Source: a bacterium (GTDB lineage Bacteria > Patescibacteriota > Minisyncoccia > Phycocordibacterales > Phycocordibacteraceae). From it: a stretch of 64,000 nt of DNA. The position numbers were made by a program, and so were the translations under genes. Positions 2,681 to 52,784 of this stretch are shown here, piece after piece (within the stretch, counting starts at the first letter, position 1; the number at the start of each line of letters is the position of its first letter). The DNA lies in NCBI GenBank assembly GCA_023267755.1, contig JAHFMR010000002.1:42463-106462 (forward strand). The letters are read 5' to 3'. Under the pieces are notes generated by a model. The model did no database searches, had not been told where the DNA came from, and saw only the letters and a list, made by a program, of their open reading frames with translations.

Positions 2681-3310
2681 ATGGCTATTACCTCGGCAAA
2701 TGCGACCCAGCAATTCGTCCCGGTCAAAGAGATTCGGAATGGCGTCATCATCCTCAAAGACGGCAGTTATCGCGGCGTGCTCATCTGCTCCTCGGTCAAC
2801 TTCGGATTGAAGTCGGCTGATGAGCAGCACGCTATTACACTTGGCTTCCAGAATTTTCTCAATACGCTCGATTTCTCGATACAAATCACCATCAATTCAC
2901 GACGGATGGATTTGCGCCCTTATCTCGCGTTTCTTGCCGAGAAAGAGCCCGATCAAAAGAGCGAACTGATGCGCATCCAGCTCCGTGAGTATATCGAGTT
3001 CATCCGATCATTTACTGACCAGTTAAATATTATGACAAAGTCCTTTTATGTCATCGTCCCATACGCACCGCACTTCTCTGCCGCAAGCTCTATAGGCTTC
3101 CTCAAACACGATGCCGGTGCGACACATATTGCAGAAAGTTCCTTCGAAGAAGACCGTGCCCAACTTGAACAGCGTCTCTCGCTCGTCGGGGGCGGGCTTG
3201 AGAGCATCGGCGTGCGTGCGGTCCCGCTCGGCACCGAAGAGGTTATTGAGCTTCTGTACCGCTCTTTCAACCCCGGCGAGCTCGAGAATCCTATTCGTCT
3301 CGACAATTGA
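2681..3310 (+). CDS. Hypothetical protein, either an accessory T4SS component or a split-off VirB4 N-terminal domain
   Basis: The 209-aa ORF is translationally coupled on both sides. Its stop is 1 nt before the VirB4-like start and its start is 1 nt after the PrgI stop. There is no TM segment. Confidence 0.55.
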   Translation: MAITSANATQQFVPVKEIRNGVIILKDGSYRGVLICSSVNFGLKSADEQHAITLGFQNFLNTLDFSIQITINSRRMDLRPYLAFLAEKEPDQKSELMRIQLREYIEFIRSFTDQLNIMTKSFYVIVPYAPHFSAASSIGFLKHDAGATHIAESSFEEDRAQLEQRLSLVGGGLESIGVRAVPLGTEEVIELLYRSFNPGELENPIRLDN

Positions 3311-3311
3311 T

Positions 3312-5790: not shown

Positions 5791-5819
5791 CCTCCTTGTG
5801 CAGGCTATATACTAGAAGT

Positions 5820-6803: not shown

Positions 6804-7450
6804 AACGTCTGACCCTCACTTCTTTTATCCTTTTCCTCCTCTTTACCTCTTTTGCTACGCTCGCACACGCAACAGGGTTCGTCCCGCTCGCTCCTATCTC
6901 TGGCCTCACGACAGTCCAGCCGACAGATGCCGGATTGTCTACCTTCTTCAACAATCTCTACAAATATCTCATCGGCCTTTCCGCGGCACTCGCGGTCATT
7001 ATGATTGTCTGGGGCGGGCTCGAGATCTCTACCCAGGACTCGGTCAGTAAACAGGGGGAGGGGAAAGAGAAGATACGCGGAGCGCTCTTCGGCCTCGCGC
7101 TCGTCCTCTCACCCGTGCTTGTCTTCACCATCATCAACCCCAAGATTTTGAACCTGTCGGTTGGTCTCGAAAAACTTAATGTGAATGCTCCGACGTCAAT
7201 TTTTGGGTCCTTTGGATCTTCCCCTTCATCTAGTCTTATTCCTAGCACCGCAACAAGTGGCCCCTCCTTCCCGCAATCTGAATTCCAGACAAGCTGTTCA
7301 TCATACTCAAATTCAACCAATGAAGTGATAATTGCATCTCTTCCAAAGACTTGCTCCGATTTCAATGGAACATCTATCGCTATGCTTTGTTGTTTCCCGA
7401 ATGGCGGTGTGAATACAACTAATTTCTCATGTTGCGTACACCCGAAATAA
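6800..7450 (+). CDS. Putative TrbC/VirB2-like pilin-type protein with a Cys-rich C-terminal extension
   Basis: A signal peptide is followed by two hydrophobic helices separated by a short polar loop (LSAALAVIMIVWGGLEIST ... ALFGLALVLSPVLVFTII), which is the VirB2/TrbC topology. The C-terminal tail contains 8 Cys. Confidence 0.45.
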   Translation: MKRLTLTSFILFLLFTSFATLAHATGFVPLAPISGLTTVQPTDAGLSTFFNNLYKYLIGLSAALAVIMIVWGGLEISTQDSVSKQGEGKEKIRGALFGLALVLSPVLVFTIINPKILNLSVGLEKLNVNAPTSIFGSFGSSPSSSLIPSTATSGPSFPQSEFQTSCSSYSNSTNEVIIASLPKTCSDFNGTSIAMLCCFPNGGVNTTNFSCCVHPK

Positions 7451-7455
7451 TTTCT

Positions 7456-8643
7456 ATGCGCCGAACACTTATTATTACCGGAATAGTCGTTGTCATCATC
7501 GGAGTCGGGGTCGCTATTTATTTCCTCTTCTTCGCGAAGCCGGCGATTACTGTCCCCGACACGACTCTTCCTTCTGCGGGGCAGGGGACCCTCCCTTCGG
7601 GGAGCGCTTCGGACGCTACAGCCCCCCAGAGCGGCCCCAAGGCCGTTACTGCGCGCTTGGTTAAGATTAGTGCTGGCCCGGTCGTCCCGGGCGAGGCGGT
7701 CGTTGATAAACGCGGATCCACTGCGAGCTCATCGCCTGAGGTTGTGGTCAATTACATCGAGCGCCAGAGTGGTAATGTCTTTATCTACTCTGAGACTACC
7801 CGGACACTCACTCGCGTCTCCAACAAAACACTCCCGGGTATCCAGTCCGCCGCGTGGCTCTCCGATGGCTCGGCGGCGCTGGTGCGGTATCTCTCGGGCG
7901 CGGACTCCTCCACGATAAACACTTACGCACTCTTCGCGACAAGCTCAGACGGGTTTTTCTTATCCCAAAACCTTACCGATGTCGCTGTCTCTTCGACAAA
8001 CATCCTGACGCTCGCCTCTGGTGTGAACGGTTCTGTCGCCTCACTCTCGAACAAAGACGGTTCCCATTCGGTCTCCATCTTCACTTCGCCGCTCTCTGCC
8101 CTCCGGCTCTCGTATGCGGGGAAGGATCATTATCTCGCTTTCACCAAGCCTTCAAATGCTCTTGCCGGTGGCGCATTTCTTGTTGATACCGCTGGGAATT
8201 TTTCCCGTGTCGGTGGCGCCCACAACGGTCTTGTCGCGCTTGCGAGTCCGAGCGGCAAATGGGTTCTTATCAGCTCGGCCCGCGGAGGCACGATGCAGCT
8301 GGAACTGGTAGACACTACTACCAGTGAGAGTATTGCTCTCCCGGTCGCCACTATCGCGGATAAATGCGTGTGGGCTACTGATGATTCGGCCATCTACTGT
8401 GGTGTTCCGACAACGTCTCCCGCTGGCGCTGTGTATCCTGATGACTGGTATCAGGGTGCGGTGCACTTCTCTGATCGTATCTGGAAGATTCAGGTCGCCG
8501 GCCGCTATGCACAGCTCGTGCTCGATTTTCCAAAGGAGGCCAAGGATGTGTTGGATGCCTGGGCACTTGCGCTCGACCCATCAGAGACGACGCTCGTCTT
8601 TGTTAATAAGAATGATGGCTCTCTCTGGAGCTATTCTCTATAG
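7456..8643 (+). CDS. Hypothetical membrane-anchored extracytoplasmic protein, probably a beta-propeller-like fold
   Basis: It has a single N-terminal TM anchor and a long Ser/Thr/Gly-rich ectodomain. It is the last gene of the co-directional block downstream of virB4. Confidence 0.5.
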   Translation: MRRTLIITGIVVVIIGVGVAIYFLFFAKPAITVPDTTLPSAGQGTLPSGSASDATAPQSGPKAVTARLVKISAGPVVPGEAVVDKRGSTASSSPEVVVNYIERQSGNVFIYSETTRTLTRVSNKTLPGIQSAAWLSDGSAALVRYLSGADSSTINTYALFATSSDGFFLSQNLTDVAVSSTNILTLASGVNGSVASLSNKDGSHSVSIFTSPLSALRLSYAGKDHYLAFTKPSNALAGGAFLVDTAGNFSRVGGAHNGLVALASPSGKWVLISSARGGTMQLELVDTTTSESIALPVATIADKCVWATDDSAIYCGVPTTSPAGAVYPDDWYQGAVHFSDRIWKIQVAGRYAQLVLDFPKEAKDVLDAWALALDPSETTLVFVNKNDGSLWSYSL

Positions 8644-9383: not shown

Positions 9384-9695
9384 TTAACGAATTTTAGAAA
9401 GAATATCGGCGAGTTCTGCTTGTATATCCTGATAAGACATCCGTGCAACGGTCGCGCGCGGGAAGAGGATAAGGGCGGCAGGGAGAAGTGGAGTAGCACG
9501 GAGTACTGAGAGAATCTGGCGTTTTATCCTGTGCCGTGTCACCGAAAGCCGCGCAATCTTCTTGGGCACCACTACCGCGTACCCCGTAGCTGCTGCGGGG
9601 ATGATGGCCGTAAAATTGGCTGAGGAGAGTCGCTTCCCCGCAGAGAGCGCCGCAGGGAAGGATGCTCGAGAAAATCTTCTCCGACGAGGAAACAC
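9384..9695 (-). CDS. rnpA: Ribonuclease P protein component
   Basis: It is a basic protein carrying a RnpA-type RNR-like motif (VTRHRIKRQILSVLR). It is positioned between rpmH and yidC. Confidence 0.8.
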   Translation of the reverse strand: MFPRRRRFSRASFPAALSAGKRLSSANFTAIIPAAATGYAVVVPKKIARLSVTRHRIKRQILSVLRATPLLPAALILFPRATVARMSYQDIQAELADILSKIR

Positions 9696-9701
9696 AGTAC
9701 C

Positions 9702-9845
9702 CTAGACGGACGTTGTAAGACTCTTTCGTCCGACACGCCGACGGCCCTGGACAATCTTGCGGCCAGAGGCTGTTTTGCTCCGAGTAAGGAAGCCGTGCGT
9801 CTTAGCACGCTTCCTTTTCTTCGGCTGATAGGTCATTTTCGCCAT
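9702..9845 (-). CDS. rpmH: 50S ribosomal protein L34
   Basis: Hand translation of the minus strand gives [47 protein letters not shown], the canonical L34 sequence. At 47 aa it is below the ORF-track cutoff and so not listed there. Confidence 0.9.
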
Positions 9846-9943
9846 ACTGAATGCAAATTAGGTTATACCCATGATACTAACAGGTTCTCCCCGAAACACC
9901 ACCCTGTCTTGTTTTAGTGTAAAAGCGTATACTCCAGAATATT

Positions 9944-11293
9944 ATGGACAAAGGGAATCCGAAGGAATTGTGGGAATACATTCTTACTCAGGTTGAACTC
10001 TCTGTTTCTCCAGCAAACTTCAATACATGGTTCCGAAACAGCTTCATCGTAAAGATTGAAGATGGAGTTATCTATGTCGGCGTGCCGAGTCAATTCTTCA
10101 AAGACTGGTACCTTAAGAAGTTCCACACACTCCTTCTAAAGATTGTCCGTGATATTTCTTATGAGTTCCGCAATATTGAGTATCTCATTGTGAAGGATGA
10201 ACGCCGTAAGGTGCAGAAGGAGGTAAAAAACACTCGTGGCGTACTCGAACTTCCGCTTGATGAGTTTTATATCAACAAAAGCGATAGTCTAAACCCACGT
10301 TACACCTTCGACACGTTCGTCATTGGTTCCTTTAATAATCTCGCTTATGCAGCAGCGCAGGCGGTGCTTACGCGTCCTGGTATCACCTATAACCCTCTCT
10401 TTATTTACGGTGACACGGGGCGCGGCAAGACCCATTTAATTCAAGCTATTGGTAATCAGTATAAGAAACAATATCCAGGGCGTAAGGCGTTTTATCTGAC
10501 TTCAGAGAAGTTTACAATCGACTACACTGACTCGGTTCAGGCCGGTACGGCAAACCGTTTTAAAGATAAATATCGTCAGTATGATCTGCTTATTATGGAT
10601 GATGTGCAGTTCCTATCGAAGAAACTAAAGACTGAGGAGGAGCTCTTCCATCTCTTTAACACACTTCACGACACTAATAAGCAGATTATTTTCTCCTCTG
10701 ATCGTGCGCCTGCGGCTATTCCTGATATAGCCGACCGCCTGAAGGGGCGCCTCGCGAGTGGTATGACCATAGATATCGGCGAACCCGATCCTGAATCCCG
10801 TATGGCGATAGTGAAGAGGAAAGCTGCTTCTCACGGGGTGATGCTCTCTGATGAAGTGGTTGAGTATGTCGCCACTACTATGAGTGGTTCTATTCGTGAA
10901 CTTGAGGGTATGGTGAATAATCTTATCTGTCACGCACAAGTAAAAGGTTTTGCGCCGGATATTCTTGAAGTTCGTCAGTCACTCCGATCATTTACCCGCC
11001 CCCAGAAGACTATTTCTGTAAAAAATGTCGTTGATAAGGTTGCTTCTTTTTATGGTATTGATGAAGAGAGTATTTATGAGAAGACTCGTAGAAGGGAGGT
11101 GGTGCGCCCGCGCCAAGTAATTATGTACATCCTTCGAGAAGATTTTAATATTTCATATCCCACTATTGGAACAAAACTTGGTGGTCGTGATCACACGACT
11201 GTTATCCACTCCTGTGAAAAAATAAAACGTGAAGTAGTTGTTGATACTGATCTCGCAAAAGAAATTCAGAATATTCGCACTCTTCTTGTATGA
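9944..11293 (+). CDS. dnaA: Chromosomal replication initiator DnaA
   Basis: The AAA+ Walker A GDTGRGKTHL and Walker B LLIMDDVQF motifs are present, together with a C-terminal DnaA-box-binding HTH domain (IGTKLGGRDHTTVIHSCEKI). Confidence 0.95.
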   Translation: MDKGNPKELWEYILTQVELSVSPANFNTWFRNSFIVKIEDGVIYVGVPSQFFKDWYLKKFHTLLLKIVRDISYEFRNIEYLIVKDERRKVQKEVKNTRGVLELPLDEFYINKSDSLNPRYTFDTFVIGSFNNLAYAAAQAVLTRPGITYNPLFIYGDTGRGKTHLIQAIGNQYKKQYPGRKAFYLTSEKFTIDYTDSVQAGTANRFKDKYRQYDLLIMDDVQFLSKKLKTEEELFHLFNTLHDTNKQIIFSSDRAPAAIPDIADRLKGRLASGMTIDIGEPDPESRMAIVKRKAASHGVMLSDEVVEYVATTMSGSIRELEGMVNNLICHAQVKGFAPDILEVRQSLRSFTRPQKTISVKNVVDKVASFYGIDEESIYEKTRRREVVRPRQVIMYILREDFNISYPTIGTKLGGRDHTTVIHSCEKIKREVVVDTDLAKEIQNIRTLLV

Positions 11294-11405
11294 CTTCTTT
11301 CAACGTATTGTACACAGGTTATCTTTTTGAAAAGAGTAAAAATAATCAATATATACAAGCATTTTTTGACCTATCCCCACTATCCACTATACTAATAAGC
11401 ATCGT
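11294..11405. promoter_or_regulatory. Candidate oriC segment (dnaA-dnaN spacer) with an AT-rich unwinding stretch and degenerate DnaA boxes
   Basis: The AT-rich run aaaagagtaaaaataatcaatatatacaag is followed by ctATCCCCActATCCACTa, two 7/9 matches to TTATCCACA. The spacer sits between dnaA and dnaN. Confidence 0.5.
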
Positions 11406-12506
11406 ATGATTATTTCTTTAGATAAAAAAATATTCTCTGAAGCAGTGCATACTGTTGCTCGTTTTGCAGAGCGGAAGAGTGGAACACTTCCTGTACTCTC
11501 ATCCATCCTTATTCTTGCTGGAGATGAAGGAATTAAATTACGTGCAACAAATCTTGAAACAGGTATTGATTTAAAACTCGAAGGAACCTGTACTACAAAA
11601 GGAGTAGTTGCTGTCCCCGCAGTAGTCTTACAACAAATTGCTGGATCACTCACAAATGAGGGGAGTATTACTCTTGAACACACTGGAGATATTCTTTCAC
11701 TCTCAAGCGGCACAGGGAAAAGTTCAATAAAAACAATTCCTTACGATGATTTCCCCTCAATTCCATTCCCAGAAAATCCAAAAAATAGAATCATCCTCCC
11801 GGGAATCATTTTAAAAAACCTCTTCACCACTATCGCCTCCTGCGCTTCCTCCTCAACTATCCGCCCAGAACTCTCAAGTATCTATCTTTCTATTGAAGGA
11901 GGAGTATTAACAGCTGTTGCAACAGACTCATTCAGGCTCGCAGAAAAGAAAGTTCCCCTCACTAATAAAGGGACACAAGGAAAATTCCTTATTCCCGCGA
12001 AGAATGCACTCGATATAGCGCAAGCACTTCCAGATGACGATATTATTATTTCATTTGATGAGCACCAATGCGCTTTTGTGAGTCAGGGTGGTATGCTCGT
12101 TTCGCGTCTTACGAACGCAACCTACCCCGACTACCGGCAAATAATTCCAAAAGAGTCTGTTGTTGAAGCGGTAATACTTAGGAAAGATTTTGAGACCGCA
12201 CTAAAACGAACAACTATCTTCTCAGATGCATTCCAGAAAATACGTATCAGCTTCGATCAGAAGAAGAATAAATTTATATTATTCGCGCGAAATACTGATA
12301 TTGGAGAATCCACCGAGACAATCTCTGCAAACATATCTGGAACTGCACTCGACCTCTCGTTTAATCACCGGTATCTCTCAGCGGTGCTCGCACTTACTAA
12401 TGCCGAGAGTCTCTCGCTTCTTGCTGCGGGTATCGGCCGCCCACTTATCATCAAGGGTGTTGGAGACACCTCACTCCTCTACCTCGTTTCACCGATGAAT
12501 CAGTAG
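11406..12506 (+). CDS. dnaN: DNA polymerase III beta sliding clamp
   Basis: It is 366 aa, has a three-domain clamp pattern and lies immediately after dnaA. Confidence 0.9.
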   Translation: MIISLDKKIFSEAVHTVARFAERKSGTLPVLSSILILAGDEGIKLRATNLETGIDLKLEGTCTTKGVVAVPAVVLQQIAGSLTNEGSITLEHTGDILSLSSGTGKSSIKTIPYDDFPSIPFPENPKNRIILPGIILKNLFTTIASCASSSTIRPELSSIYLSIEGGVLTAVATDSFRLAEKKVPLTNKGTQGKFLIPAKNALDIAQALPDDDIIISFDEHQCAFVSQGGMLVSRLTNATYPDYRQIIPKESVVEAVILRKDFETALKRTTIFSDAFQKIRISFDQKKNKFILFARNTDIGESTETISANISGTALDLSFNHRYLSAVLALTNAESLSLLAAGIGRPLIIKGVGDTSLLYLVSPMNQ

Positions 12507-38789: not shown

Positions 38790-39323
38790 ATGCTCTATAC
38801 CGGTAAAGGAGACGGTGGGACGACCAAGGTGTTCGGCTGTGACCAGCAGCGAATCTCGAAGTCCTCCGAGCTACCCGAAGCGCTTGGCGCGCTCGACGAA
38901 CTGAATGCGTTCCTTGGATTCGTGAAGATGCGTGTGAAGGAATCAGCGCGAATCGCGGGAGCGATTCGCGCTGCACAAGAATCACTCTTCATCATCCAAG
39001 CAGAAGTCGCGGGAGCTGATAAGCGAGTGGGGAAGGAGCGCGTGGAAGAGGTTGAAGCGCTCGTGAACACGATAGAGAAAGAGATCCCACCTATCACTAG
39101 CTTCTCGATAGCGGGCGGCACCGAGCTCTCGGCACTGCTCGATGTCGCCCGCACGCTCTCGCGTCGCGCCGAGCGCCGTGTGGTCGCAGTAGGAGAGCTC
39201 GGTCTGCGCACTCTCTCCCCCGAGACACTGGCCTATCTGAACCGGCTCTCCTCGCTCCTCTTCGCGCTCGCGCGCCTCGCGAACCACGAAGCGGGCGTTG
39301 CCGACGAGCATCCGCGGTATTAG
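38790..39323 (+). CDS. PduO-type ATP:cob(I)alamin adenosyltransferase-family protein
   Basis: MLYTGKGDGGTTKVFGCDQQRISKSSELPEALGALDELNAFLG matches the PduO/MMAB N-terminal signature (T..GD.G.T.L......K.D.R.EA.G..DELN). Confidence 0.8.
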   Translation: MLYTGKGDGGTTKVFGCDQQRISKSSELPEALGALDELNAFLGFVKMRVKESARIAGAIRAAQESLFIIQAEVAGADKRVGKERVEEVEALVNTIEKEIPPITSFSIAGGTELSALLDVARTLSRRAERRVVAVGELGLRTLSPETLAYLNRLSSLLFALARLANHEAGVADEHPRY

Positions 39324-42598: not shown

Positions 42599-43018
42599 AT
42601 GGCTACCGTTACAAAAAAGATTAAATTGCAGATTCCGGGCGGGAAGGCGACGCCAGCACCGCCAGTAGGTACGGCGCTCGGCCCTGCCGGCGTGAACATC
42701 GGTCAATTCGTGACTCAGTTCAACGAGGCGACCAAGGACAAGCAGGGCACGATTATCCCAATAGAGCTCTCGGTCTACGACGATCGCACCTTCACCTTCA
42801 TTATGAAGAATCCGCCGGCCTCCCGGCTTATCTTGAAGGCGGTCGGGCTCGAAAAGGGATCAAGCAAAGCGAAGAGCTCCAAGGCAGGAACTATCACCAA
42901 GGAACAAATTGCGACTATTGTCGCCGAGAAGATGCCCGACTTAAACGCGAACTCTCCCGAGGCGGCCGCACGCATCATCGCGGGTACCGCACGCTCGATG
43001 GGTATCGAGGTGAAGTAG
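42599..43018 (+). CDS. rplK: 50S ribosomal protein L11
   Basis: [26 protein letters not shown] is a canonical L11 N-terminus. Confidence 0.95.
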
Positions 43019-43033
43019 GGAACAGGGGAAATG

Positions 43034-43062
43034 AAAAAAGCGCTCGCGAGAGCGCCTTTTTT
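43034..43062. terminator. Bidirectional rho-independent terminator (rplK on + / folA on -)
   Basis: It is aaaaaa-gcgctc-gcga-gagcgc-cttttttg, with an A-run and a T-run flanking a GC hairpin. Confidence 0.8.
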
Positions 43063-43079: not shown

Positions 43080-43610
43080 CTAGGGGAGCATGATGCGCTC
43101 GCGCATCTGGAAAGAGGTGACGTGCGTATCGCGCGGGTCCCAGTGTTTCGAGGGTTCGATACTCCGTATCGCCCACGACTCTGGCGGTACTGTCGGGAAG
43201 AACGTGTCGCCTGAAATCTGGGCATGAACGAGCGTGAGGTATATCCGCTGCGCGAGAAGCATCGCTTCTCGGTAGATCTCGCCGCCGCCGATGATGAAGA
43301 CCTCTTCAGCGCCGTGCGTACCCATAGCGGCGATACAAGCGTCTGCAAACGAAGGGACAACTATCGCACCCTCGGCTTGGTAGCCTGCTTGTCGTGTGAG
43401 GACGATATTGGTCCTTTCGGGGAGTGGCTGGAAGGCTTCGGGAAGAGACTCCCAGGTTGCCCGTCCCATAACGACCGGGTGTCCGGTCGTAATCCGTTTG
43501 AACCGCGCCAGATCGCTCGGGAGATGCCACGGCAGCTTGCCGCCCTGGCCGATAGTCCCGTTTGTCGCCCTCGCGACGATGATAGAAAGAACAGTCTTTG
43601 TATTGCACAT
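43080..43610 (-). CDS. folA: Dihydrofolate reductase
   Basis: LSIIVA...NGTIG..GKLPW, LP.D...FK..T and VVMGR.TWESL match DHFR signature segments. Confidence 0.85.
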   Translation of the reverse strand: MCNTKTVLSIIVARATNGTIGQGGKLPWHLPSDLARFKRITTGHPVVMGRATWESLPEAFQPLPERTNIVLTRQAGYQAEGAIVVPSFADACIAAMGTHGAEEVFIIGGGEIYREAMLLAQRIYLTLVHAQISGDTFFPTVPPESWAIRSIEPSKHWDPRDTHVTSFQMRERIMLP

Positions 43611-43797
43611 AATGCACTCCCTTTTTCGATATGAACCCCTGCATAGTCTCGCGATATGCCTCTGGCGTCAACTCCGACGCTACTGGTCGGAGCCCCGACT
43701 CTGACGTCGGGGCTGCTTGCGCCATGCCCCCTTCGAGCGTAGAGTGCGCACAGATTTACCCTGTTCCAAATCATCCCACACAAACTCAGGAGGCCAT

Positions 43798-44622
43798 ATG
43801 GCTGCAGCATTCAATGAAATCACCGTCCGCGTTCTCGCACGTACCGTCGTCGATCGACAAGCGGTGCGGGAATGGCTCGACGAAATGGGGGCGAATGAAT
43901 TCGAGATCCCTTCCGAAGAAACTGTATCCGATCCGGCTCTTCTCGTGGCGCTTGCAGCAAAGCAGTGCTACATGGCATTCCAGCCGGGGCTGAACCCGAA
44001 CGTCAACAAGGTCCGCAAGGATATGGTCGAATACCTCGACAATGTCCTGAAGCAACGCCACGGTTCTGTTCTCGAACATGCGGTGTTCAGTTTCGGCGTC
44101 AACGGATGTTCGAGGGTCTTTACAGGCGAAATGAATCGGCATCGGGCCGGTGTCGGTATTTCCGAGCGAAGCATGCGATACATCCGGTATACCAACATCA
44201 AGTTCTGGATGCCGGAGTGCTTCCGTGATGAGGAGGGTGATACCTCCGCCATTCTTGAGAAGAAACGACTCTCTCGGGAACGGCTTACAGCCCAATTCGC
44301 AAGTCAAGAGGACATGATGGCATTCTTTGCTGAAGTCTGGAAGGAAGAACTCGCTCCCGAGAGCACCTTCCATGCGAAGAAGGTCCTGACCTCGGCATTT
44401 CGGCGCGGCATCGGTATGGGCGTTGCGACCGGCGGTGTCTGGTCGCTCAACTTGCGGGCGCTTCGTCACGTGATTGCGCTGCGTACCGATGAAGGCGCCG
44501 AGGAAGAGATTGCTCACGTCTTCAAGAAGGTCGGCAAGATCATGCTTGCGCAAGTGCCGGAACTCTTCGGGGACTTCAAGGAAGTGAATGGAGTCCTCGT
44601 TCCTGAGTACTGGAAGGTGTAA
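43798..44622 (+). CDS. thyX: Flavin-dependent thymidylate synthase ThyX
   Basis: It has the RHR-x8-S ThyX motif (NRHRAGVGISERS). An AGGAGG RBS lies 6 nt upstream of the ATG. The start is at an internal Met of a longer ORF. Confidence 0.8.
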   Translation: MAAAFNEITVRVLARTVVDRQAVREWLDEMGANEFEIPSEETVSDPALLVALAAKQCYMAFQPGLNPNVNKVRKDMVEYLDNVLKQRHGSVLEHAVFSFGVNGCSRVFTGEMNRHRAGVGISERSMRYIRYTNIKFWMPECFRDEEGDTSAILEKKRLSRERLTAQFASQEDMMAFFAEVWKEELAPESTFHAKKVLTSAFRRGIGMGVATGGVWSLNLRALRHVIALRTDEGAEEEIAHVFKKVGKIMLAQVPELFGDFKEVNGVLVPEYWKV

Positions 44623-44648
44623 TCGGCTGGCCCTCCACGGCTCACTCA

Positions 44649-44676
44649 ACGGCGACTACGGTCGCCGTTTCTTTTT
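44649..44676 (+). terminator. Rho-independent terminator after thyX
   Basis: A ggcgac-tacg-gtcgcc hairpin is followed by gtttcttttt. Confidence 0.75.
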
Positions 44677-44778
44677 ATACAAAATTGCTTTTTACGCCTC
44701 CGGCGCGTACAGTTTGCCCGGGTTGCACACATTGTCATCAATCAGAAACCAAACGCTATAGGCGGAAGGAGTGCCATC

Positions 44779-45894
44779 ATGTTGGATAACGAAAAACCAG
44801 TCGTCCTTGCTGACCGGGACTTGCACGCGATCATCACGGGCGAGGCGCCCTTCATCACCAAGCAAGACAGCTTTACACTCGATCAGATTCAGGCTTCATC
44901 GCTCGATCTCACTCTCGGGTCGCAGGTGTTCGGTATGGGTGTCGCATCTCTGCCGCGCAGTGGCGGGAGTGTCGCCGATCTACTCAAAGGGAATCAGTAC
45001 GCCTTTGATCTCAATATCGGCCAGCCAGGCTTCCTGCATCGCGGCTACACCTACATCGTGCCGCTTAATGAAGGACTTCTGCTCCCCGAAGGGTTTTCGG
45101 CGAAGTTCTCACCCAAGAGCTCGACGGGTCGCACCGATACGTTCGTGCGCATTCTGGCCGACGGCGTACCGCGTTTCGACTACGTACCAGAAGGGTATCA
45201 GGGAAGTTTGTACCTCGAGATTACGCCGCTGTCGTTCCCGATCCTCATCCGTCCAGGCCTCTCGCTCGTGCAGATGCGGATTCGCAATGGCGATGCTCGT
45301 CTGACCGGCAAAGAGGTCGCCATCATGCATTCCCATAAGGGCATCTTTATGGACAAGGGCGGCAAAGTAATCCTGACGCACGACTTGAAGCTGGCCGAGC
45401 ACGGCGTGTATATGCACATCGATCTCGATCGCGATATTGTCGGATTTGCCTCGCGCACCAATGTGGCGAGCGCGCTTACGCTCTTCGACTCGGCAACGCA
45501 CGACTGGAGTGAGTTCTGGGAGCCGATCAGGCGCCCCCGAAACGGTCTCACACTAAATCCCGACCGGTTCTACCTCCTTCCAACAAAAGAGCGGGCGCGT
45601 ATCCCGAACGACGTGTGCGGCGATATCGCTCCCTACGACGCTTCAACCGGGGAGTTCCGTACACACTACGCGGGATTCTTCGATCCGGGCTTTGGTGGCG
45701 AGTTCGGCATCACGGGCGTCCTGGAAGTTCGCGGCAGAGAAGTGCCGCACCGCCTCTTCGATAACGATCCGATCTGCCTTATGAACTTCGAGCGAGTCAG
45801 TCCGGTCTCGAAGCCGTATGACGGGAACTACCAGAATCCCGGACCGTCGCTCTCGAAACACTTCAAGGAGCGATATGAAGCGTGGGGGACCTGA
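44779..45894 (+). CDS. Tandem-domain dCTP deaminase/dUTPase-superfamily protein (2'-deoxycytidine 5'-triphosphate deaminase-like)
   Basis: There are two dUTPase-fold halves. The first carries the KSSTGRTD motif (dCTP deaminase (K/R)SSxxRxG) and the second carries a DPGFGGE motif. At 371 aa it is about twice the size of a canonical Dcd. Confidence 0.6.
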   Translation: MLDNEKPVVLADRDLHAIITGEAPFITKQDSFTLDQIQASSLDLTLGSQVFGMGVASLPRSGGSVADLLKGNQYAFDLNIGQPGFLHRGYTYIVPLNEGLLLPEGFSAKFSPKSSTGRTDTFVRILADGVPRFDYVPEGYQGSLYLEITPLSFPILIRPGLSLVQMRIRNGDARLTGKEVAIMHSHKGIFMDKGGKVILTHDLKLAEHGVYMHIDLDRDIVGFASRTNVASALTLFDSATHDWSEFWEPIRRPRNGLTLNPDRFYLLPTKERARIPNDVCGDIAPYDASTGEFRTHYAGFFDPGFGGEFGITGVLEVRGREVPHRLFDNDPICLMNFERVSPVSKPYDGNYQNPGPSLSKHFKERYEAWGT

Positions 45895-45910
45895 TGGTGC
45901 CAAAATTTTG

Positions 45911-45947
45911 CCCGCGACGACGCCAGTCGTCGCGGGCTTCTCTTTTG
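45911..45947 (+). terminator. Rho-independent terminator
   Basis: A cccgcgacgac-gccag-tcgtcgcggg hairpin is followed by cttctctttt. Confidence 0.75.
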
Positions 45948-45998
45948 GCCGGCTTTTGTATAGGATGATCTTGGACTAATTATACGGAGGGTTCTGTT

Positions 45999-46646
45999 AT
46001 GAAAGCGAAATATGTGGTATTCGACGGTATGGACGGCTCAGGGAAGGGGACGCAGATCGAGCTCCTGAAGAGGGCACTCGGCGATTCGGTATTCTTCACA
46101 CGCGAGCCGGGTGGTCCGCCGCTTGCCGAGGAGATACGGAAGATTGTCCGCGATAGCCCTCTCGCAGGGCAATCAACAGCGCTTTTCCACTTCCTCGGTT
46201 TCTGGATGGCGAGAGAAGAGACGATGCACAAGCTCGTTATACCCACGCTGCAGTCGGGCAAGCACGTCTTTTCTGACCGGGGAGAGTCGTCGACCGTCGC
46301 GTTTCAGCTCTGGGGCGAGGAACATCACGAGCTCCAACACGCATTCGATATCATGCACGCATTGGTGTTTGACGAGCGGCACGAGCCCGATCTCTACATC
46401 ATCTTCGACCTGCCGGCCGAAGTCGCTCGCGAACGGGTGATGCGCGATGCAAATCGCGAGACGAACCATTTCGACGAACGTGATCTCGCGTACTACGAGC
46501 GCGTGCGCGAAGGGTTTCGCGAGTTCGCGAAACATCTGCCGGTCGAGTTCGTCGATGCAACGGGTTCGCCAGAAGAGATACACCGTTCTGTGCAGATGGT
46601 TCTTGCGCGACGAATGATTCTCCCCGAGCTGGCGTTCCTTGTGTGA
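45999..46646 (+). CDS. tmk: Thymidylate kinase
   Basis: It has the FDGMDGSGKGTQ P-loop and a TREPGG motif. Confidence 0.9.
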   Translation: MKAKYVVFDGMDGSGKGTQIELLKRALGDSVFFTREPGGPPLAEEIRKIVRDSPLAGQSTALFHFLGFWMAREETMHKLVIPTLQSGKHVFSDRGESSTVAFQLWGEEHHELQHAFDIMHALVFDERHEPDLYIIFDLPAEVARERVMRDANRETNHFDERDLAYYERVREGFREFAKHLPVEFVDATGSPEEIHRSVQMVLARRMILPELAFLV

Positions 46647-46710
46647 CAACCTCGTCCGTTCCCGGCGCGCTCTTGGCGCGCCGGTTTTTCATTTCTGGTA
46701 CAGTAGCCAG

Positions 46711-47976
46711 ATGAAATTCCCTTTCATAAAGAGAGAAGACCCAGAGATATACACCGCGCTCGTGGGTGAGGAGAAGCGGCAGGCCGAGGGACTGGAGCTC
46801 ATCCCCAGCGAGAACTACGTCTCGCACGCAGTGAAGGAAGCGATGGCCTCTTCGCTTACCAATAAGTATGCCGAAGGGTATCCCGGCAAGCGTTACTACG
46901 GCGGACAGGAGTTCACCGACGCGGTCGAGACACTCGCGATAGAGCGCGCGAAGAAGCTCTTTGGTGCGAAATTTGCAAACGTGCAGCCGCTTGGCGGCGC
47001 CAATGCGAACATCGCGATGTACTTCGCCCTCCTCTCTCCCGGCGACACCGTGCTCGGGATGGATCTCTCACACGGCGGCCACCTGACTCACGGCCACCCG
47101 GTAACCTATCTCACCAAGATCTTCAACTTCGTCCATTATGGGATGAAGGATGTCGAGACGGGCGAGATTGACTACGACGAGATGCGTCGCGTCGCCAAGA
47201 AGACAAAGCCTAAGATTATCCTCGCGGGCTTCTCGGCGTATCCGCGCGAGCTCGACTATGCGAAGTTTGTAAAGATTGCGCGCGAGGTGGGCGCGCTTGC
47301 GGTGATGGACATCGCGCACATCGCGGGACTCATCGCGGGTAAGGCGGCCAAGAATCCGTTTGACTACGGCTTCGATATTATGACCACCACGACGCACAAG
47401 ACGCTGCGCGGCCCGCGTGGCGGGATGATCCTCGTGCGCGAGAGCGAAGAGCTGGCAAAGAAGATCGACAAAGCAATTTTCCCAGGCTTCCAGGGCGGCC
47501 CGCATATGCACCAGATAGCCGCCAAGGCAGTCGCCTTCGGCGAAGCACTTCGACCCTCATTTAAGAAATACGCGAAGCAGATTATCAAGAATGCAAAGGC
47601 GATGGAAAAAGTCTTTAAGAAAAGTGGCGCGCGTATGCTCGCTGGCGGTACCGATAACCACCTTATCCTGCTCGACGTGTGGACCTCGTATGGCATCTCG
47701 GGTGGGGAAGCGGAGCGGCTGCTTGATAGGGCGGGCATCACGCTCAATAAGAACGCGATCGCTGACGACACAAGGAAGCCGATGGACCCGTCCGGCATCC
47801 GCTTTGGCACACCGGCGATCACGACGCGCGGACTCGGCTCTGCAGAATCCGCGCGCGTGGCCGAGCTGATGATCGAGGTACTCACTAAGCGCGACGACAC
47901 GACAGTCGTGCGCGTGAGAAAAGAGATTAAGAAGCTCGCAAAGGCCTTCCCAATACCAGACTCATTTGAGAAGTAA
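46711..47976 (+). CDS. glyA: Serine hydroxymethyltransferase
   Basis: It has the PLP-lysine region TTTHKTLRGPRGG and the N-terminal LIPSENYVS motif. Confidence 0.95.
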   Translation: MKFPFIKREDPEIYTALVGEEKRQAEGLELIPSENYVSHAVKEAMASSLTNKYAEGYPGKRYYGGQEFTDAVETLAIERAKKLFGAKFANVQPLGGANANIAMYFALLSPGDTVLGMDLSHGGHLTHGHPVTYLTKIFNFVHYGMKDVETGEIDYDEMRRVAKKTKPKIILAGFSAYPRELDYAKFVKIAREVGALAVMDIAHIAGLIAGKAAKNPFDYGFDIMTTTTHKTLRGPRGGMILVRESEELAKKIDKAIFPGFQGGPHMHQIAAKAVAFGEALRPSFKKYAKQIIKNAKAMEKVFKKSGARMLAGGTDNHLILLDVWTSYGISGGEAERLLDRAGITLNKNAIADDTRKPMDPSGIRFGTPAITTRGLGSAESARVAELMIEVLTKRDDTTVVRVRKEIKKLAKAFPIPDSFEK

Positions 47977-47994
47977 ATCTGGTACACTCGTCCC

Positions 47995-49572
47995 ATGGAG
48001 GAGCGGATACGAGAAGTGTTAGGGAAGAACGATATCACGATACGACGGCCACTGCCGGCGTTTGGCGACTACGCGGTCTTCGGAGGTGCCGAGGCAGAAG
48101 CACTTGCTTCGCAACTGCGCGAGGGGCTGGGAGCTACGGTAGAGAAGGTAGAGGTGGTGCACGGCTTCGTGAATATCACCATCTCTCGTGAGGCGGTAAC
48201 GCTCGCGGTCGCTGAAGCGGCTGCGCAGGGGAGCGAATGGGGAAAAAATGATAAAGAAGCGGGGAAGCGCGTGATGGTCGAATACAGCAACCCGAACGCG
48301 TTTAAGGAGATGCATATTGGGCATTTGGTCGGCTCCATTATCGGCGAGTCCCTCTCTCGGCTTATCGAGAGTGAGGGGGCGACCGTGATGCGCGACACAT
48401 TTGGTGGGGATGTGGGGCCGAACGTCGCTAAGGCACTCTGGGGGCTGAAGGAAGCCGGTATCACCACGCCGACAAAGGCCGAAGAGCTCGGTGCCGCCTA
48501 TGCTGCGGGCGCGAAGGCGTATGAGGAGAGCGAGGAGGCGAGAGCAGAGATAGACGCGCTCAATCAGGCTCTCTACGCCGGTACGGACTCGGCACTCATG
48601 GGGCTGTGGCGCACAGGCCGGGAGATCTCGATGGAAGAGTTCCGCCGAATATGGAGGATTCTCGGGACGCATTTTGATTTTGAATTCTTTGATAGTGATA
48701 CGATCGAGAGCGGTCTGCGCCTCGTGCGTGATGGGCTCGAGAAGGGAGTCTTCGAGAAGAGTGATGGTGCGGTCATCTACAACGGTGAAGGGAAGGGAGT
48801 GCACACAATGGTCTTTATCACCTCGCACGACACCCCGACGTATGAGGCCAAGGATATTGGGCTCGCATTCTTGCGCGAGGAACGTTATTCGAGCGATCAG
48901 GTCATCATCATCACCGGCAACGAACAGACCGGACGCTTCAAGACCGTCCTCGCCGCGCTCGGAGAGCTCGCGCCGCTCCTCGCGAAGAAGACGGCACATA
49001 TCGCCACCGGATTTTTGAAATTAAGTGAGGGGAAGATGTCCTCTCGCGAGGGGAATGTCATCACCGCATCAGAATTCATCAGGAGTGTTATCGAGAAGGC
49101 GAGCGAGAAAAACCCTGATCCGCTCATCGCTGAGCAGGTCGCTGTGGGGGCGATTAAATATATGGTGCTCCGTCAATCACCCGGATCAGATATCATCTTC
49201 GACCCCGAGAAGTCGCTCTCGCTCGAAGGCGACTCGGGGCCGTATCTCCAATACGCGCTCGTGCGTGCCAAGAAGATTCTCACGTACGCTGGCGGAGAAG
49301 CGGGAACTGGAGAGCCGGACACACCTTACGCGGTCGAGCGAGTCATCCTCCACTACCCAGAAGTGGTTGCGCGCGCGATTGCCGAGCGCGCACCAAGCGT
49401 GCTCGTGACCTACCTTATCGAACTCGCGAGCGAGTGGAACTCTTTTTATGCAACGGAACAGGTGCTCGGCTCTCCTGAAGAGGTATATAAACAACGTGTC
49501 GCACGCGCCTTCGCCACCACAATGACAAATGGCCTCACGCTCCTGAGAATCCCCACGCCAGAGCGGATGTAA
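47995..49572 (+). CDS. argS: Arginine--tRNA ligase
   Basis: It is a class I aaRS with a HIGH-like motif (MHIGHLVGS), KMSSR (KMSKS-like) and a C-terminal DALR-type anticodon-binding region. Confidence 0.75.
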   Translation: MEERIREVLGKNDITIRRPLPAFGDYAVFGGAEAEALASQLREGLGATVEKVEVVHGFVNITISREAVTLAVAEAAAQGSEWGKNDKEAGKRVMVEYSNPNAFKEMHIGHLVGSIIGESLSRLIESEGATVMRDTFGGDVGPNVAKALWGLKEAGITTPTKAEELGAAYAAGAKAYEESEEARAEIDALNQALYAGTDSALMGLWRTGREISMEEFRRIWRILGTHFDFEFFDSDTIESGLRLVRDGLEKGVFEKSDGAVIYNGEGKGVHTMVFITSHDTPTYEAKDIGLAFLREERYSSDQVIIITGNEQTGRFKTVLAALGELAPLLAKKTAHIATGFLKLSEGKMSSREGNVITASEFIRSVIEKASEKNPDPLIAEQVAVGAIKYMVLRQSPGSDIIFDPEKSLSLEGDSGPYLQYALVRAKKILTYAGGEAGTGEPDTPYAVERVILHYPEVVARAIAERAPSVLVTYLIELASEWNSFYATEQVLGSPEEVYKQRVARAFATTMTNGLTLLRIPTPERM

Positions 49573-49958: not shown

Positions 49959-52784
49959 ATGGCCGATATGCCGGAGAAGTCAGACGCCGCTAAGAGAGAG
50001 GAAGCGATACTCGCGTTCTGGCAGAAGGAGCGCATCTTCGAGAAATCGCTCGAGAAGGAAGCTCCGGGGGGCGACTTTGTATTTTATGATGGTCCGCCGT
50101 TTGCAACCGGCACGCCGCATTATGGGCACATCGTCGCGAGCGTGATCAAAGACGTTGTACCGCGCTACTGGACTATGCGCGGTTACCATGTCCCGCGCGT
50201 TTGGGGCTGGGATTGTCACGGTCTGCCGATTGAAAATATTGTCGAGAAAGAGCTCGGCTTCAAACACAAGAAAGATATCAAGGAATACGGCATCGCGAAT
50301 TTTAATGAGCGTTGTCGCGAACGCGTGCTCACCTATGTCGACTACTGGAAGACGTTCATCCCACGCATTGGTCGCTGGGCTGATATGGAGAACGCCTACA
50401 GCACAATGGACAAATCTTTTATGGAGAGCGTCTGGTGGGTCTTCAAGACAATCTACGACAAAGGGCTTGTCTACGAGGATTATCGCGTGATGCATATCTG
50501 TCCGCGCTGTGAGACGACGCTCTCGCAACAGGAAGTTTCAGAAGGATACAAAGACGTGAAAGATATCGCGGTGACGGTGAAGTTCAAAGTAAAAAATCCG
50601 GAGCAGCTAGGAGTGCCGCATGATAATCAAGTCTGTATTCTTGCGTGGACTACAACACCTTGGACGCTTCCGGGTAACGTGGCGCTCGCGATTGGCGAGA
50701 AGATTCAGTATGTGATGTGGACTGACGCTGAGGAGGGCAGGGGCGCAGTTAGTTATATTGCATCAGCTGCTTGGTTCAATAAGAATCAAGTTCAGTCTGT
50801 TACCGTACCAGTTTCTACAGAAGTTCTTAAATCTCTCGAATACGAACCACTCTTTGATTACTACAGCAAAGATACATCACTCAAGAATCATGAGAATGGT
50901 TGGAAGGTGTGTGCCGCAGATTTTATAACTACTGATACTGGCACTGGCATCGCGCACGAAGCGCCGGCTTTCGGTGCGGACGATTGGGAACTCTCGAAGC
51001 AATACAATCTGCCATTCGTGCAGCACGTAAACTACGACGGCACGATGAAGAGTGAAGTGACGGCTTTTGCCGGCATGGAGGTGAAGCCGCGTTCAGATGA
51101 TGACTCAGTGCGGCTTGGTACCGACATCGCGGTGCTCAAATATCTACAGGAGCACAGCACGCTCTTCACGAAAGAGAACATAACGCACTCCTACCCGCAT
51201 TGCTGGCGCTGTGATACACCGCTCCTCAACTACGCGACGAGCTCATGGTTTGTTTCCGTTATGAAGATCAAAGAGAATATGCTCGAAAATGCCAAGAGCA
51301 TCTCGTGGTCGCCAGTGCACATTAAGGATGGCCGCTGGGGTAAGTGGCTCGAGGGCGCACGCGATTGGTCTATCTCACGTCAGCGCTTCTGGGCGAGCGC
51401 GATACCGATGTGGCGCTGTGACTCATGCAAGGGGGTACGTGTCTTCGGAGGGGCGGCCGAGCTTGAGGAGGCGAGTGGGAAGAAGATCGATGATTTGCAT
51501 AAACATATTGTCGACGAGATCACCGTGCCCTGCGCCTGCGGCGGCGTGATGCACCGTATCCCGGACGTGCTCGACACCTGGTTCGACTCCGGCTCGATGC
51601 CCTATGGAGAGAAGCACTATCCCTTCGAAGGGAAAGAAAGTTTTGATGCACAGTTCCCGGCACAATTTATCGCCGAGGGCATCGACCAGACACGCGCTTG
51701 GTTCTACTACCTGCACGTGCTCGCGGGCGCACTCTTTGAGAAGAATGCATTTCAAAATGTGATTGTAAACGGTATCGTGCTCGCCGAAGACGGCAAGAAG
51801 ATGTCGAAGCGCCTGCAGAATTACCCCGATCCGATGGATGTTGTAAATAAGTACGGCGCCGACGCACTCCGGCTCTATCTACTCGCTTCGCCTGTTATGC
51901 AGGCCGAGAATCTCGCGTTCTCCGAGAGCGGCGTTGACGAAATTGCTAAGAAGAATATTGGGCGCTTGAGTAATGTGCTCGCGTTCTACAAGCTCTTTGC
52001 AGGTGGCACTGCCGCCGCTACAAGCAAGAATATCCTCGATGTGTGGATCCTGGCACGACTCGGCGAGCTCCTACAAGAATCCACCGAGGGATATGAACAA
52101 TACCGGCTCGACAGTGCGACGAGGGCACTCGCACCGTTCATCGACGATCTCTCGGCGTGGTATGTGCGTCGCTCGCGCGATCGGTTCAAGGAAGGGAGTA
52201 ATGAAAGGGGAGAAGCCGTCTCGACCCTGCGCTATGTGCTCCACGAACTCGCTATCATCATGGCACCAGCGATGCCCTTCATCGCCGAGGAGATATTCCA
52301 GGAAGTACGCGAGAAAACGGATCCAGAAAGTGTGCATCTAGCTGGTTGGCCCTACTTCGCTGAAGCTACGAAGGGCGCGCCCGAAGTGAATGGAAAGCTG
52401 ATTGAAGAGATGGCGCACGTGCGCTCCCTCGCTTCGGAGACGCTCCAATTGCGTCAGAAAGCAAACATAAAAGTGCGTCAGCCGCTCGCCAAGCTCACCG
52501 TGCCTGAAGCCCTCTCGAGCGAGCTCGCGCAGATTCTCGCGGATGAAGTAAATGTGAAAGAAATCGTTATGGGAGGGGAGCTCGCACTCGACACCGAGCT
52601 CACCCCCGAGCTCATCAAGGAGGGCGATGAACGTGAAATGGCGAGCGCTGTCGCGCAAGCACGCAAGGCGGAGAGGCTCTCGCCGGCCGATGTGGCGCAT
52701 GCCACGATAAATGAAGGAGGGAAGTATAGTGCGGCGCTCTCGACAGGCGAAGTACGTTTCGACCTGATTAAAGATGCGGCATAA
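49959..52784 (+). CDS. ileS: Isoleucine--tRNA ligase
   Basis: It has HYGH (HIGH class I), KMSKR (KMSKS), a CP1 editing domain and C-terminal zinc-binding Cys pairs. It is 941 aa. Confidence 0.95.
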   Translation: MADMPEKSDAAKREEAILAFWQKERIFEKSLEKEAPGGDFVFYDGPPFATGTPHYGHIVASVIKDVVPRYWTMRGYHVPRVWGWDCHGLPIENIVEKELGFKHKKDIKEYGIANFNERCRERVLTYVDYWKTFIPRIGRWADMENAYSTMDKSFMESVWWVFKTIYDKGLVYEDYRVMHICPRCETTLSQQEVSEGYKDVKDIAVTVKFKVKNPEQLGVPHDNQVCILAWTTTPWTLPGNVALAIGEKIQYVMWTDAEEGRGAVSYIASAAWFNKNQVQSVTVPVSTEVLKSLEYEPLFDYYSKDTSLKNHENGWKVCAADFITTDTGTGIAHEAPAFGADDWELSKQYNLPFVQHVNYDGTMKSEVTAFAGMEVKPRSDDDSVRLGTDIAVLKYLQEHSTLFTKENITHSYPHCWRCDTPLLNYATSSWFVSVMKIKENMLENAKSISWSPVHIKDGRWGKWLEGARDWSISRQRFWASAIPMWRCDSCKGVRVFGGAAELEEASGKKIDDLHKHIVDEITVPCACGGVMHRIPDVLDTWFDSGSMPYGEKHYPFEGKESFDAQFPAQFIAEGIDQTRAWFYYLHVLAGALFEKNAFQNVIVNGIVLAEDGKKMSKRLQNYPDPMDVVNKYGADALRLYLLASPVMQAENLAFSESGVDEIAKKNIGRLSNVLAFYKLFAGGTAAATSKNILDVWILARLGELLQESTEGYEQYRLDSATRALAPFIDDLSAWYVRRSRDRFKEGSNERGEAVSTLRYVLHELAIIMAPAMPFIAEEIFQEVREKTDPESVHLAGWPYFAEATKGAPEVNGKLIEEMAHVRSLASETLQLRQKANIKVRQPLAKLTVPEALSSELAQILADEVNVKEIVMGGELALDTELTPELIKEGDEREMASAVAQARKAERLSPADVAHATINEGGKYSAALSTGEVRFDLIKDAA

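Follow-up and report, generated by a model that had tools for sequence, protein, structure and literature searches.

A thymidylate gene slot of mosaic composition between rplK and argS in a Patescibacteriota genome, with thyX beside folA as a probable thyA/thyX hybrid

Dihydrofolate reductase (DHFR, the product of folA) and the thymidylate synthase ThyA have been described as a two-enzyme adaptive unit, folA-thyA (Schober et al. 2019, as summarised in PMC11974145). The flavin-dependent thymidylate synthase ThyX occurs together with canonical DHFR and serine hydroxymethyltransferase (SHMT) in Rickettsiales such as Wolbachia (PMC11765544) and in mycobacteria with thyA, thyX and dfrA (PMC3352284, PMC5954106), and there DHFR is read as supplementary. 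Rickettsiales all use thyX whether folA is present or not, combining thyX and glyA with a variable folA (PMC11765544). The displacement of thyA and thyX by one another and their lateral transfer have been outlined by Stern et al. 2010, in the form reported in PMC5954106, from a sporadic distribution and the involvement of viruses, with genomes that hold both genes as transition states. Genomes of the candidate phyla radiation (CPR) carry folA in 54.8% of 4,581 cases, these genes complement folA-deleted Escherichia coli, and de novo folate synthesis is generally missing (PMC11974145). The locus considered here is a cluster of folA, thyX, a dCTP deaminase gene, tmk and glyA in a 64,000-nucleotide stretch of DNA, referred to as the window (positions 42,463 to 106,462 of contig JAHFMR010000002.1, assembly GCA_023267755.1), from a bacterium of the Phycocordibacteraceae within the Patescibacteriota. 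All coordinates below are those of the window unless a locus is named.

Like the folA-thyA unit, the cluster has a DHFR gene that adjoins and is divergent from a thymidylate synthase gene, and thyA stands in that place in the relatives L037, L080, L090 and L143 (L-numbers denote the compared loci, mostly metagenome contigs). The partner in the window is, however, ThyX, yielding tetrahydrofolate (THF) rather than dihydrofolate (DHF), and the biochemical reason for a coupling to folA is therefore absent. The combination of ThyX with DHFR and SHMT is shared with Rickettsiales and mycobacteria; a single cluster, or alternation of thyA in place among close relatives, is not described in the available parts of those papers, whereas the five genes of the window form one contiguous row, and close relatives alternate in what occupies the thymidylate synthase position. 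The relatives L022 and L096/L041 fit the both-present transition state of the displacement model, while the fixed position, the conserved flanks, the narrow clade and the gene-precise boundary at the thyX terminator set this case apart from that model as far as PMC5954106 relays it. The locus is clearly a new instance of the known non-homologous displacement between thyA and thyX, at an unusually fine scale.

Of greater interest is how the slot between rplK and argS varies gene by gene as a mosaic, the window being a thyA/thyX hybrid. At a probability of roughly seven in ten, the slot holds a native thymidylate set, conserved in function and mosaic in its genes, and the window is a rare hybrid produced by in-place exchange of thyA and thyX beside an existing folA-...-dcd-tmk-glyA array. 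The window slot comprises an intact folA on the minus strand (43080-43610; 176 amino acids, aa), a divergent intergenic region of 187 bp (43611-43797) and four plus-strand genes: thyX (43798-44622; 274 aa, of the RHR-x8-S subfamily), a two-domain, tandem dUTPase-fold dCTP deaminase of the variant labelled DCD2a (44779-45894; 371 aa), tmk for dTMP kinase (45999-46646; 215 aa) and glyA for SHMT (46711-47976; 421 aa). These five identities and strands, proposed in an initial annotation of the stretch, were upheld by the listing of open reading frames (ORFs) and by profile searches. The conserved borders of the slot are rplK for ribosomal protein L11 on the left (42599-43018, plus strand; Pfam Ribosomal_L11_N and Ribosomal_L11) and argS on the right (47995-49572, plus strand; Pfam tRNA-synt_1d and DALR_1), within flanks that read secE-nusG-rplK upstream and argS-ileS-recO downstream.

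The exchange is visible in comparison with L143, the closest relative by its deaminase (DCD2a 85% identical), which is arranged rplK-folA(-)-thyA-DCD2a-tmk-glyA, the layout of the window with thyA in the place of thyX. The two DNAs become homologous again (75% nucleotide identity) from 44661, within the thyX terminator, as far as the end of the contig, and blastn homology to L143, L144 and L145 starts at 44661-44706. One genome thus has thyA and the other thyX at the same position between the same flanks, the pattern of non-orthologous displacement in place. In L145 the order is thyA-DCD2a-tmk with no folA, and in L035 and L105 long ThyX-like genes precede DCD2a, so that the position upstream of DCD2a has evidently been refilled several times. 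A further relative, L022, carries a thyX (L022:8001-8835) in which 13 bp are duplicated in tandem (ATGGCGTTTCAGC twice), so that the frame is lost after about residue 63, and its slot also holds folA-DCD-DCD-thyA2 beside this broken gene, which is either an incipient pseudogene or an artefact of assembly.

The mosaic character of the slot emerged from a survey of 80 metagenome loci, sampled by NusG at 85-96% identity in order to avoid anchoring on ThyX and annotated from rplK to argS by tblastn and Pfam; the accompanying trees are neighbour-joining (NJ) trees of short proteins. The rplK-argS position is present in all NusG-anchored loci that are long enough, and argS closes the slot in almost all of the related loci. 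The slot always encodes deoxypyrimidine and one-carbon functions, yet the gene sets differ among relatives: thyX-274 accompanied by any of three deaminase types, tmk and glyA being optional; folA(-)-thyA1-DCD2b; folA(-)-DCD-DCD-thyA2-glyA; a set with or without folA that includes a cytidylyltransferase-like gene, a dCMP-deaminase fusion, HIT(-), thyA3(-), dut in some cases, and glyA; a deaminase beside a long ThyX-like protein (of 352 or 458 aa and devoid of the RHR motif); and a homologue of 5-hydroxymethyldeoxyuridine (5-hmdU) DNA kinase with DCD1. Thymidylate synthases of the slot accordingly span thyX-274, the long ThyX-like genes and at least four ThyA types, its deaminases are DCD2a, DCD2b, DCD1, a tandem pair of single-domain DCD genes or a dCMP-deaminase fusion, and folA, tmk, glyA and dut are each present or absent relative by relative. 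The slot types are interspersed on a tree of NusG and L11, and the nearest relatives of the window on both flanks, L055 and L096 (by the NusG and L11 tree; ArgS 76%), carry ThyA sets. Homology between window and relatives stops at the end of rplK (43015-43024) and resumes only where a gene type is shared. When species-representative genomes were instead anchored on ThyX, thyX lay beside rplK with argS at the far side of the slot in 24 of 29, usually accompanied by a dCTP deaminase and tmk, and in many cases by glyA. The names attached to homologues of ThyX, DHFR and the deaminase include Patescibacteria, Paceibacterota, Parcubacteria and Kaiserbacteria; the organism is a member of the Paceibacteria.

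Several slots of relatives hold proteins that depart from the standard enzymes. Divergent ThyA-family proteins occur in L096 (ThyA2, L096:13743-14729) and L068 (ThyA3, L068:9491-10375). In E. coli numbering, both keep the equivalents of the catalytic Cys146, Asn177, Glu58 and Asp169, and phosphate-binding arginines are replaced, R21, R126 and R127 in ThyA2 and R21 and R127 in ThyA3. The ThyA3 sets often lack folA and include the dCMP-deaminase fusion and the HIT protein, and the substrate or product of ThyA2 and ThyA3 may be non-standard. The long ThyX-like proteins, of 458 and about 350 aa, stand at the thymidylate synthase position (L035:6423-7799, minus strand; L105:11154-12212; L093) and have no RHR motif at all, the 352-aa form giving a weak Thy1 match (E=3e-9). 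In L108 (8897-9796, minus strand) and in L107, a homologue of phage 5-hmdU DNA kinase (PF18723, E=3e-17) lies beside a single-domain dCTP deaminase, and no recognisable thymidylate synthase was found in the slot of either locus, a possible sign of thymidine hypermodification chemistry, whether in a CPR chromosome or an integrated element.

A number of points weigh against the reading of the window as an in-place hybrid. The DHFRs of the window and L143 share only 47% identity, which means that folA itself has turned over or diverged fast and that the same folA staying behind during the exchange is unsupported. In all comparisons nucleotide identity is 70-81% and synonymous sites are saturated, no recent event having been caught, and the thyA/thyX exchange in the ancestry of the window may have run in either direction. 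The view covers 64 kb of the genome, and thyA, dut or a second folate gene could lie elsewhere. The trees are NJ trees of short proteins mostly from metagenome contigs, with ThyX and ThyA samples that were anchored differently, and the literature yielded no biochemical data on the deaminase family PF06559 or on the RHR-x8-S variant of ThyX. A more far-reaching version of the same idea, that the slot is a hot spot where deoxypyrimidine genes are swapped singly between cells and phages and synthases of unrelated folds take each other's place, that the window is a living hybrid with a fully functional DHFR uncoupled from its usual partner, and that turnover is partly driven by base modification or conflict with phages rather than by plain dTMP supply, is tentative and somewhat short of even odds; the hints cited for such a drive are the 5-hmdU DNA kinase, the ThyA-like proteins without phosphate-binding arginine and the dCMP-deaminase fusions.

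It is also conceivable, if unlikely, that nothing hybrid exists at this locus and that folA is kept because thyA, or some other source of DHF such as FolC-dependent de novo folate synthesis, is encoded elsewhere in the genome. The window is only part of the contig, which is at least 122 kb long, and of the genome, and three relatives (L096, L041 and L022) do have two thymidylate synthase genes, in their cases within the slot. Against a second enzyme, tblastn with four ThyA types detected no thyA-like sequence in the 64 kb, and neither Pfam searches of the 46 largest window ORFs nor tblastn with proteins of relatives revealed thyA, dut, dCMP deaminase or ribonucleotide reductase. The thymidylate synthase genes of every relative examined lie in the rplK-argS slot and not elsewhere in the 16-20 kb seen, and the general lack of de novo folate synthesis in CPR genomes (PMC11974145) speaks against the other DHF-producing step.

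The initial annotation regarded the pairing of folA with thyX as unusual, a view that holds as a rarity within the clade and fails across biology at large. Of 30 loci with thyA, 16 have folA in the slot, against 2 of 28 with thyX-274 alone (Fisher p=1.6e-4, for loci that are phylogenetically non-independent and with ThyX and ThyA samples from differently anchored searches). The two thyX-alone loci with folA are the window and the metagenome-assembled genome SMAG_U14070 (L034/L023), and since their DHFRs are of different types on the NJ tree, the two hybrids arose independently. In nearly every folA-bearing locus, the window included, the gene lies immediately after rplK on the opposite strand, whereas it lies further into the slot in L022, L041, L088, L095 and L096. 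Beyond the clade, Rickettsiales combine thyX with folA (PMC11765544), and given these published thyX, glyA and folA combinations and the work on CPR folA, the pairing is not new to biology. The accompanying idea that organisms with only thyX usually lack folA or have no need of it was overstated, as some DHFR activity is still required in ThyX organisms for folate synthesis or salvage (PMC1971073).

By sequence the window DHFR looks fully functional rather than decaying. Its match to Pfam DHFR_1 (E=1.8e-51) spans profile positions 2-155 of 159, a Shine-Dalgarno sequence (GGGAG) lies upstream, and of 34 columns with a conservation of 85% or more across 145 DHFRs it keeps 33, the sole change being R to Q. 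By eye, the equivalents of D27, L28, F31, R44, T46, R57, G95-G97, Y100 and T113 of E. coli FolA are present. The nearest non-self homologue is just 55-62% identical. A long DHFR branch on the NJ tree was considered as a sign of relaxed selection and this was dropped when relative-rate counts showed the opposite, lineage-specific changes being less numerous in the window DHFR than in the DHFRs linked to ThyA in relatives. Among the NCBIfam exception models for trimethoprim-resistant Dfr families, the best score was 137 bits for DfrA26 against a cutoff of 350, with others far below. These features make it unlikely, slightly more so than a second thymidylate synthase elsewhere, that folA is a functionless relic on its way to loss after thyA was displaced by thyX, a reading that draws on the association of in-slot folA with thyA, on the thyX-only relatives without folA in the slot and on a similar argument for the loss of Wolbachia folA under genome streamlining (PMC11765544). 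The intact ORF with its ribosome-binding sequence and full-length match, the retained columns and the low count of unique changes argue for a maintained gene, and the need of ThyX organisms for folate salvage (PMC1971073) supplies a role.

A role outside the cell, in which the THF that DHFR makes from folate serves mainly as a common good for a host lacking folA, independently of the organism's own dTMP synthesis, has been proposed for Paceibacterales genomes alongside the complementation experiments with CPR folA (PMC11974145). For the window it is improbable, as folA is tied physically and statistically to the type of thymidylate synthase gene in the clade, which points to a coupling internal to the cell, and no folate transporter was recognised among the window ORFs. 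In L003 (9111-9650), and also in L020 and L073, the place of folA between rplK and thyX is taken by a plus-strand gene for a 179-aa multi-pass membrane protein. The protein of L003 and L020 was weighed as a DHFR analogue and rejected, being a multi-pass membrane protein with no Pfam match; it may be a transporter.

The call of thyX itself, which would have failed in the absence of a profile match, stood, with 116.1 bits to Pfam Thy1 (cutoff 24.8) and 105.2 to the TIGR02170 equivalog (cutoff 87.9). Its start was placed at ATG 43798 rather than at TTG 43717, because AGGAGG precedes it and the resulting 274 aa equal the length of all homologues. The motif whose lack had been named as a second ground for failure, RHRxxxxxxxS, does not occur in its literal form; the residues read RHRAGVGISERS, an RHR-x8-S pattern with one residue inserted relative to RHR-x7-S. 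All 120 top homologues share this form, which is also found in other phyla and in 21 of 23 viral loci, and by this distribution the insertion is a subfamily signature and no defect. Alignment to Mycobacterium tuberculosis ThyX (3GWC/2AF6) retains LEH, E-x-x-RHR and S-x-x-S-x-RY, as well as the Arg before the 'VLP' equivalent and the Arg of 'ALR'. The assignment of these residues as catalytic or substrate-binding follows the structures of Thermotoga maritima and M. tuberculosis ThyX. That the protein is instead a ThyX-fold enzyme with another substrate is very improbable: the unmatched literal motif, an N-terminal extension of about 45 aa and only distant PDB matches (E about 1e-13) would suit such an enzyme, but the score exceeds the equivalog cutoff, the catalytic and nucleotide-binding equivalents all align with M. 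tuberculosis ThyX, the gene is the sole thymidylate synthase candidate in a slot that always holds one in relatives, members of the subfamily sit next to dUTPase in phage replication modules, and purifying selection is extreme.

The subfamily is common on viral contigs of IMG/VR. On the ThyX tree, an NJ tree with bootstrap values from purpose-written p-distance code, the Paceibacteria sequences of subclade A are sister to the phage contig L118 with 100% bootstrap and 63% identity, subclade B groups with the viral L124 and L133 at 90%, and a grouping of A and B to the exclusion of others receives 0%. The L118 module (exonuclease - thyX - dUTPase - UDG/PolA) shares the RHR-x8-S ThyX subfamily with the window; the window thyX, unlike it, is chromosomal, has housekeeping flanks and native composition, and is accompanied by dcd, tmk and glyA rather than by replication genes. 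Within subclade A, ThyX identity is 72-90% regardless of L11 identity (49-96%), and its non-synonymous divergence (dN) is about 0.1 even where that of L11 is 0.3. The flat identity matrix, weakly correlated with L11 (Spearman 0.32), is compatible with old exchange and very strong constraint and is proof of neither, and together the patterns would indicate an old exchange with phages plus very strong constraint, with no recent event. A recent transfer of thyX was considered as an explanation for the 82-88% identity found where L11 is at about 60% and was rejected, as synonymous sites are saturated and thyX identity equals that of the flanks. An isolated phage as donor was likewise ruled out, the best identities among isolated-phage homologues being only 41% (ThyX) and 44% (DHFR), with no match for dcd. 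In the IMG/VR contigs L135-L138, the viral thyX lies in two pieces about 1 kb apart (about 4744-6642), consistent with an intron or a homing-endonuclease insertion.

The composition of the region bears on the proposal of the initial annotation that the cluster is a horizontally acquired or tightly co-regulated module. GC content is flat across it at 0.55-0.58, and the requested comparison with the flanks found the five genes to look native: their third-position GC (GC3) and synonymous-codon likelihood z-scores lie between 0 and +1.6 relative to the window genes, and nusG, rplK and argS are alike. At the nucleotide level thyX is 76-79% identical to relatives, no different from nusG and rplK, and saturation of synonymous sites is general (synonymous difference pS 0.6-0.97), in thyX as in the flanks, with a lower pS for thyX in L009 only. 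The cluster borders show no integrase, tRNA or repeat. A synteny of the kind that had been named as a sign of vertical inheritance is largely present, thyX with a dCTP deaminase, usually tmk and sometimes glyA being found at the rplK-argS position in about 25 species-level Paceibacteria genomes. Horizontal transfer survives as exchange gene by gene over deep time and falls as a recent island. That the block at 43.0-47.9 kb is a recently acquired, co-regulated thymidylate operon or island is the least probable reading of all, since its functionally coherent, mostly co-directional genes, the presence of its ThyX subfamily on phage contigs and a DHFR with no relative above 62% identity are outweighed by typical GC, GC3 and codon usage, plain borders, a slot and core genes shared lineage-wide, thyX identity and synonymous saturation equal to those of the flanks, isolated-phage homologues of at most 41-44% identity with none for dcd, and terminators after the genes.

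Terminators separating thyX, the deaminase gene and tmk had been noted before, and hairpins with T-runs were indeed found after each: at 44648-44669 after thyX (-16.5 kcal/mol), at 45910-45937 after dcd (a strong hairpin with a 12-bp stem of which 10 pairs are GC; -31.9 kcal/mol) and at 46662-46684 after tmk (10-bp stem, 9 GC pairs; -21.2 kcal/mol), all on the plus strand. Because thyX, dcd and tmk each have their own strong predicted terminator, the cluster is not one tightly co-regulated operon, and no riboswitch was found: control by a THF or ZTP leader was considered and rejected, as Rfam gave no match at gathering score, nor at E up to 1 within 42.9-48.1 kb. Between rplK and folA, a GC-rich hairpin with a 6-bp stem (43040-43055; CTTTTTTG tail; -16.3 kcal/mol with A/U extension) is plausibly bidirectional, serving rplK on the plus and folA on the minus strand, because an A-run precedes and a T-run follows it. 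The gap of 18 nt between glyA and argS contains no hairpin (47970-48000), and glyA is probably co-transcribed with argS. The folA-thyX intergenic region gave no sigma-70-like match and no Rfam match, and upstream of thyX just about 10-37 nt are conserved in relatives. A perfect 9-bp inverted repeat in this region (43691-43714; AGCCCCGAC-N6-GTCGGGGCT), may act as an operator or fold into an RNA hairpin; it has no T-run, and the relatives examined do not share it.

The remaining genes of the slot encode ordinary members of their families. The deaminase matches Pfam DCD, DCD_N (E=3.5e-42) and DCD_C (E=6.4e-38), and agrees over its full length (residues 9-363) with PDB 2R9Q of Agrobacterium tumefaciens (E=9.9e-64). 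It thus resembles the two-domain family (PF06559/PF22569; 2R9Q) in both domains, while its NF005734 score of 280.3 bits falls just under the NCBIfam equivalog cutoff of 283. Its homologues form a gradient from 85% to 40% identity, and DCD2a and the two-domain DCD2b of other close relatives are only 25-35% identical. In relatives that bear thyA2 (L096:12576-13740, L041, L043 and others), two adjacent single-domain DCD-like genes of about 190 aa each are present, and these tandem genes and the fused deaminase of the window may be a split and fused pair. Tmk matches Pfam Thymidylate_kin (E=1.9e-26) and TIGR00041 (104.3; cutoff 83.25) and has the P-loop GMDGSGKGT. GlyA matches Pfam SHMT (E=5e-151) and NF000586 (570.9; cutoff 335) and is 82-92% identical in relatives; its start is most likely ATG 46711, downstream of the tmk terminator, and not TTG 46639.

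The pathway that these genes would form follows from their family assignments, with the chemistry drawn from established family biochemistry. The two-domain deaminase would convert dCTP to dUTP, or directly to dUMP if bifunctional, SHMT would load the one-carbon unit of serine onto THF to give CH2-THF, and ThyX would use dUMP, CH2-THF and NADPH with reduced FAD to form dTMP, releasing THF and not DHF, after which Tmk would phosphorylate dTMP to dTDP. As ThyX is expected to release THF, DHFR would not be needed to recycle folate after each turnover, and its most likely task is to convert salvaged folate or DHF into THF, priming and maintaining the pool. In expression, thyX, dcd and tmk would behave as separate transcription units with their own terminators, and glyA probably reads through into argS. 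In evolution, individual slot genes would have been replaced in place over deep time by analogues or distant homologues, and the hybrid of the window most plausibly arose when thyA and thyX were exchanged in place beside the existing folA-...-dcd-tmk-glyA array.

Further features of the window concern the surroundings of the slot. In the window and all relatives the thymidylate slot starts directly after rplK, which lacks the usual following rplA-rplJ-rplL, and no homologue of ribosomal protein L1 was found among the window ORFs tested. The downstream IleS (49959-52784) has 941 aa, whereas many relatives have an IleS of about 1,110-1,140 aa with an inserted histidine-phosphatase domain (PF00300), and in comparison with L003, L035 and L141 the tblastn match splits at residues 487/512. 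Upstream, a homologue of PduO-type cob(I)alamin adenosyltransferase (38790-39323; E=8.5e-43) keeps its position upstream of SIMPL-secE-nusG in L035, L036 and L141 too, and is odd in a genome expected to lack cobalamin metabolism. Near the left end (9400-12506), dnaA (9944-11293) and dnaN (11406-12506) lie beside a dip in GC content (0.42-0.48) and a change of sign in GC skew at about 7-9 kb; a replication origin is probable there, which would place the thymidylate cluster about 33 kb downstream of it on the leading strand. Beside yidC and the origin runs a series of type IV secretion-like genes (3111-8643), with a TraG/VirB4-like P-loop ATPase (3111-5129), a type IV secretion system pilin (6800-7450) and several neighbouring ORFs without a Pfam match.

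The enzymes of the cluster are ordinary, and nothing changes for the biochemistry of thymidylate synthesis. Because the content of the slot changes between close relatives, the identity of the genes after rplK in these CPR genomes is not transferable by synteny. Models of displacement assume an intermediate, and here it is visible at the resolution of single genes, the same array holding either thyA or thyX with the breakpoint at a terminator, and a third genome, L022, showing a broken thyX next to an incoming folA-thyA set. The hybrid offers a clean test of what DHFR does in a folate-scavenging symbiont when no longer coupled to ThyA.

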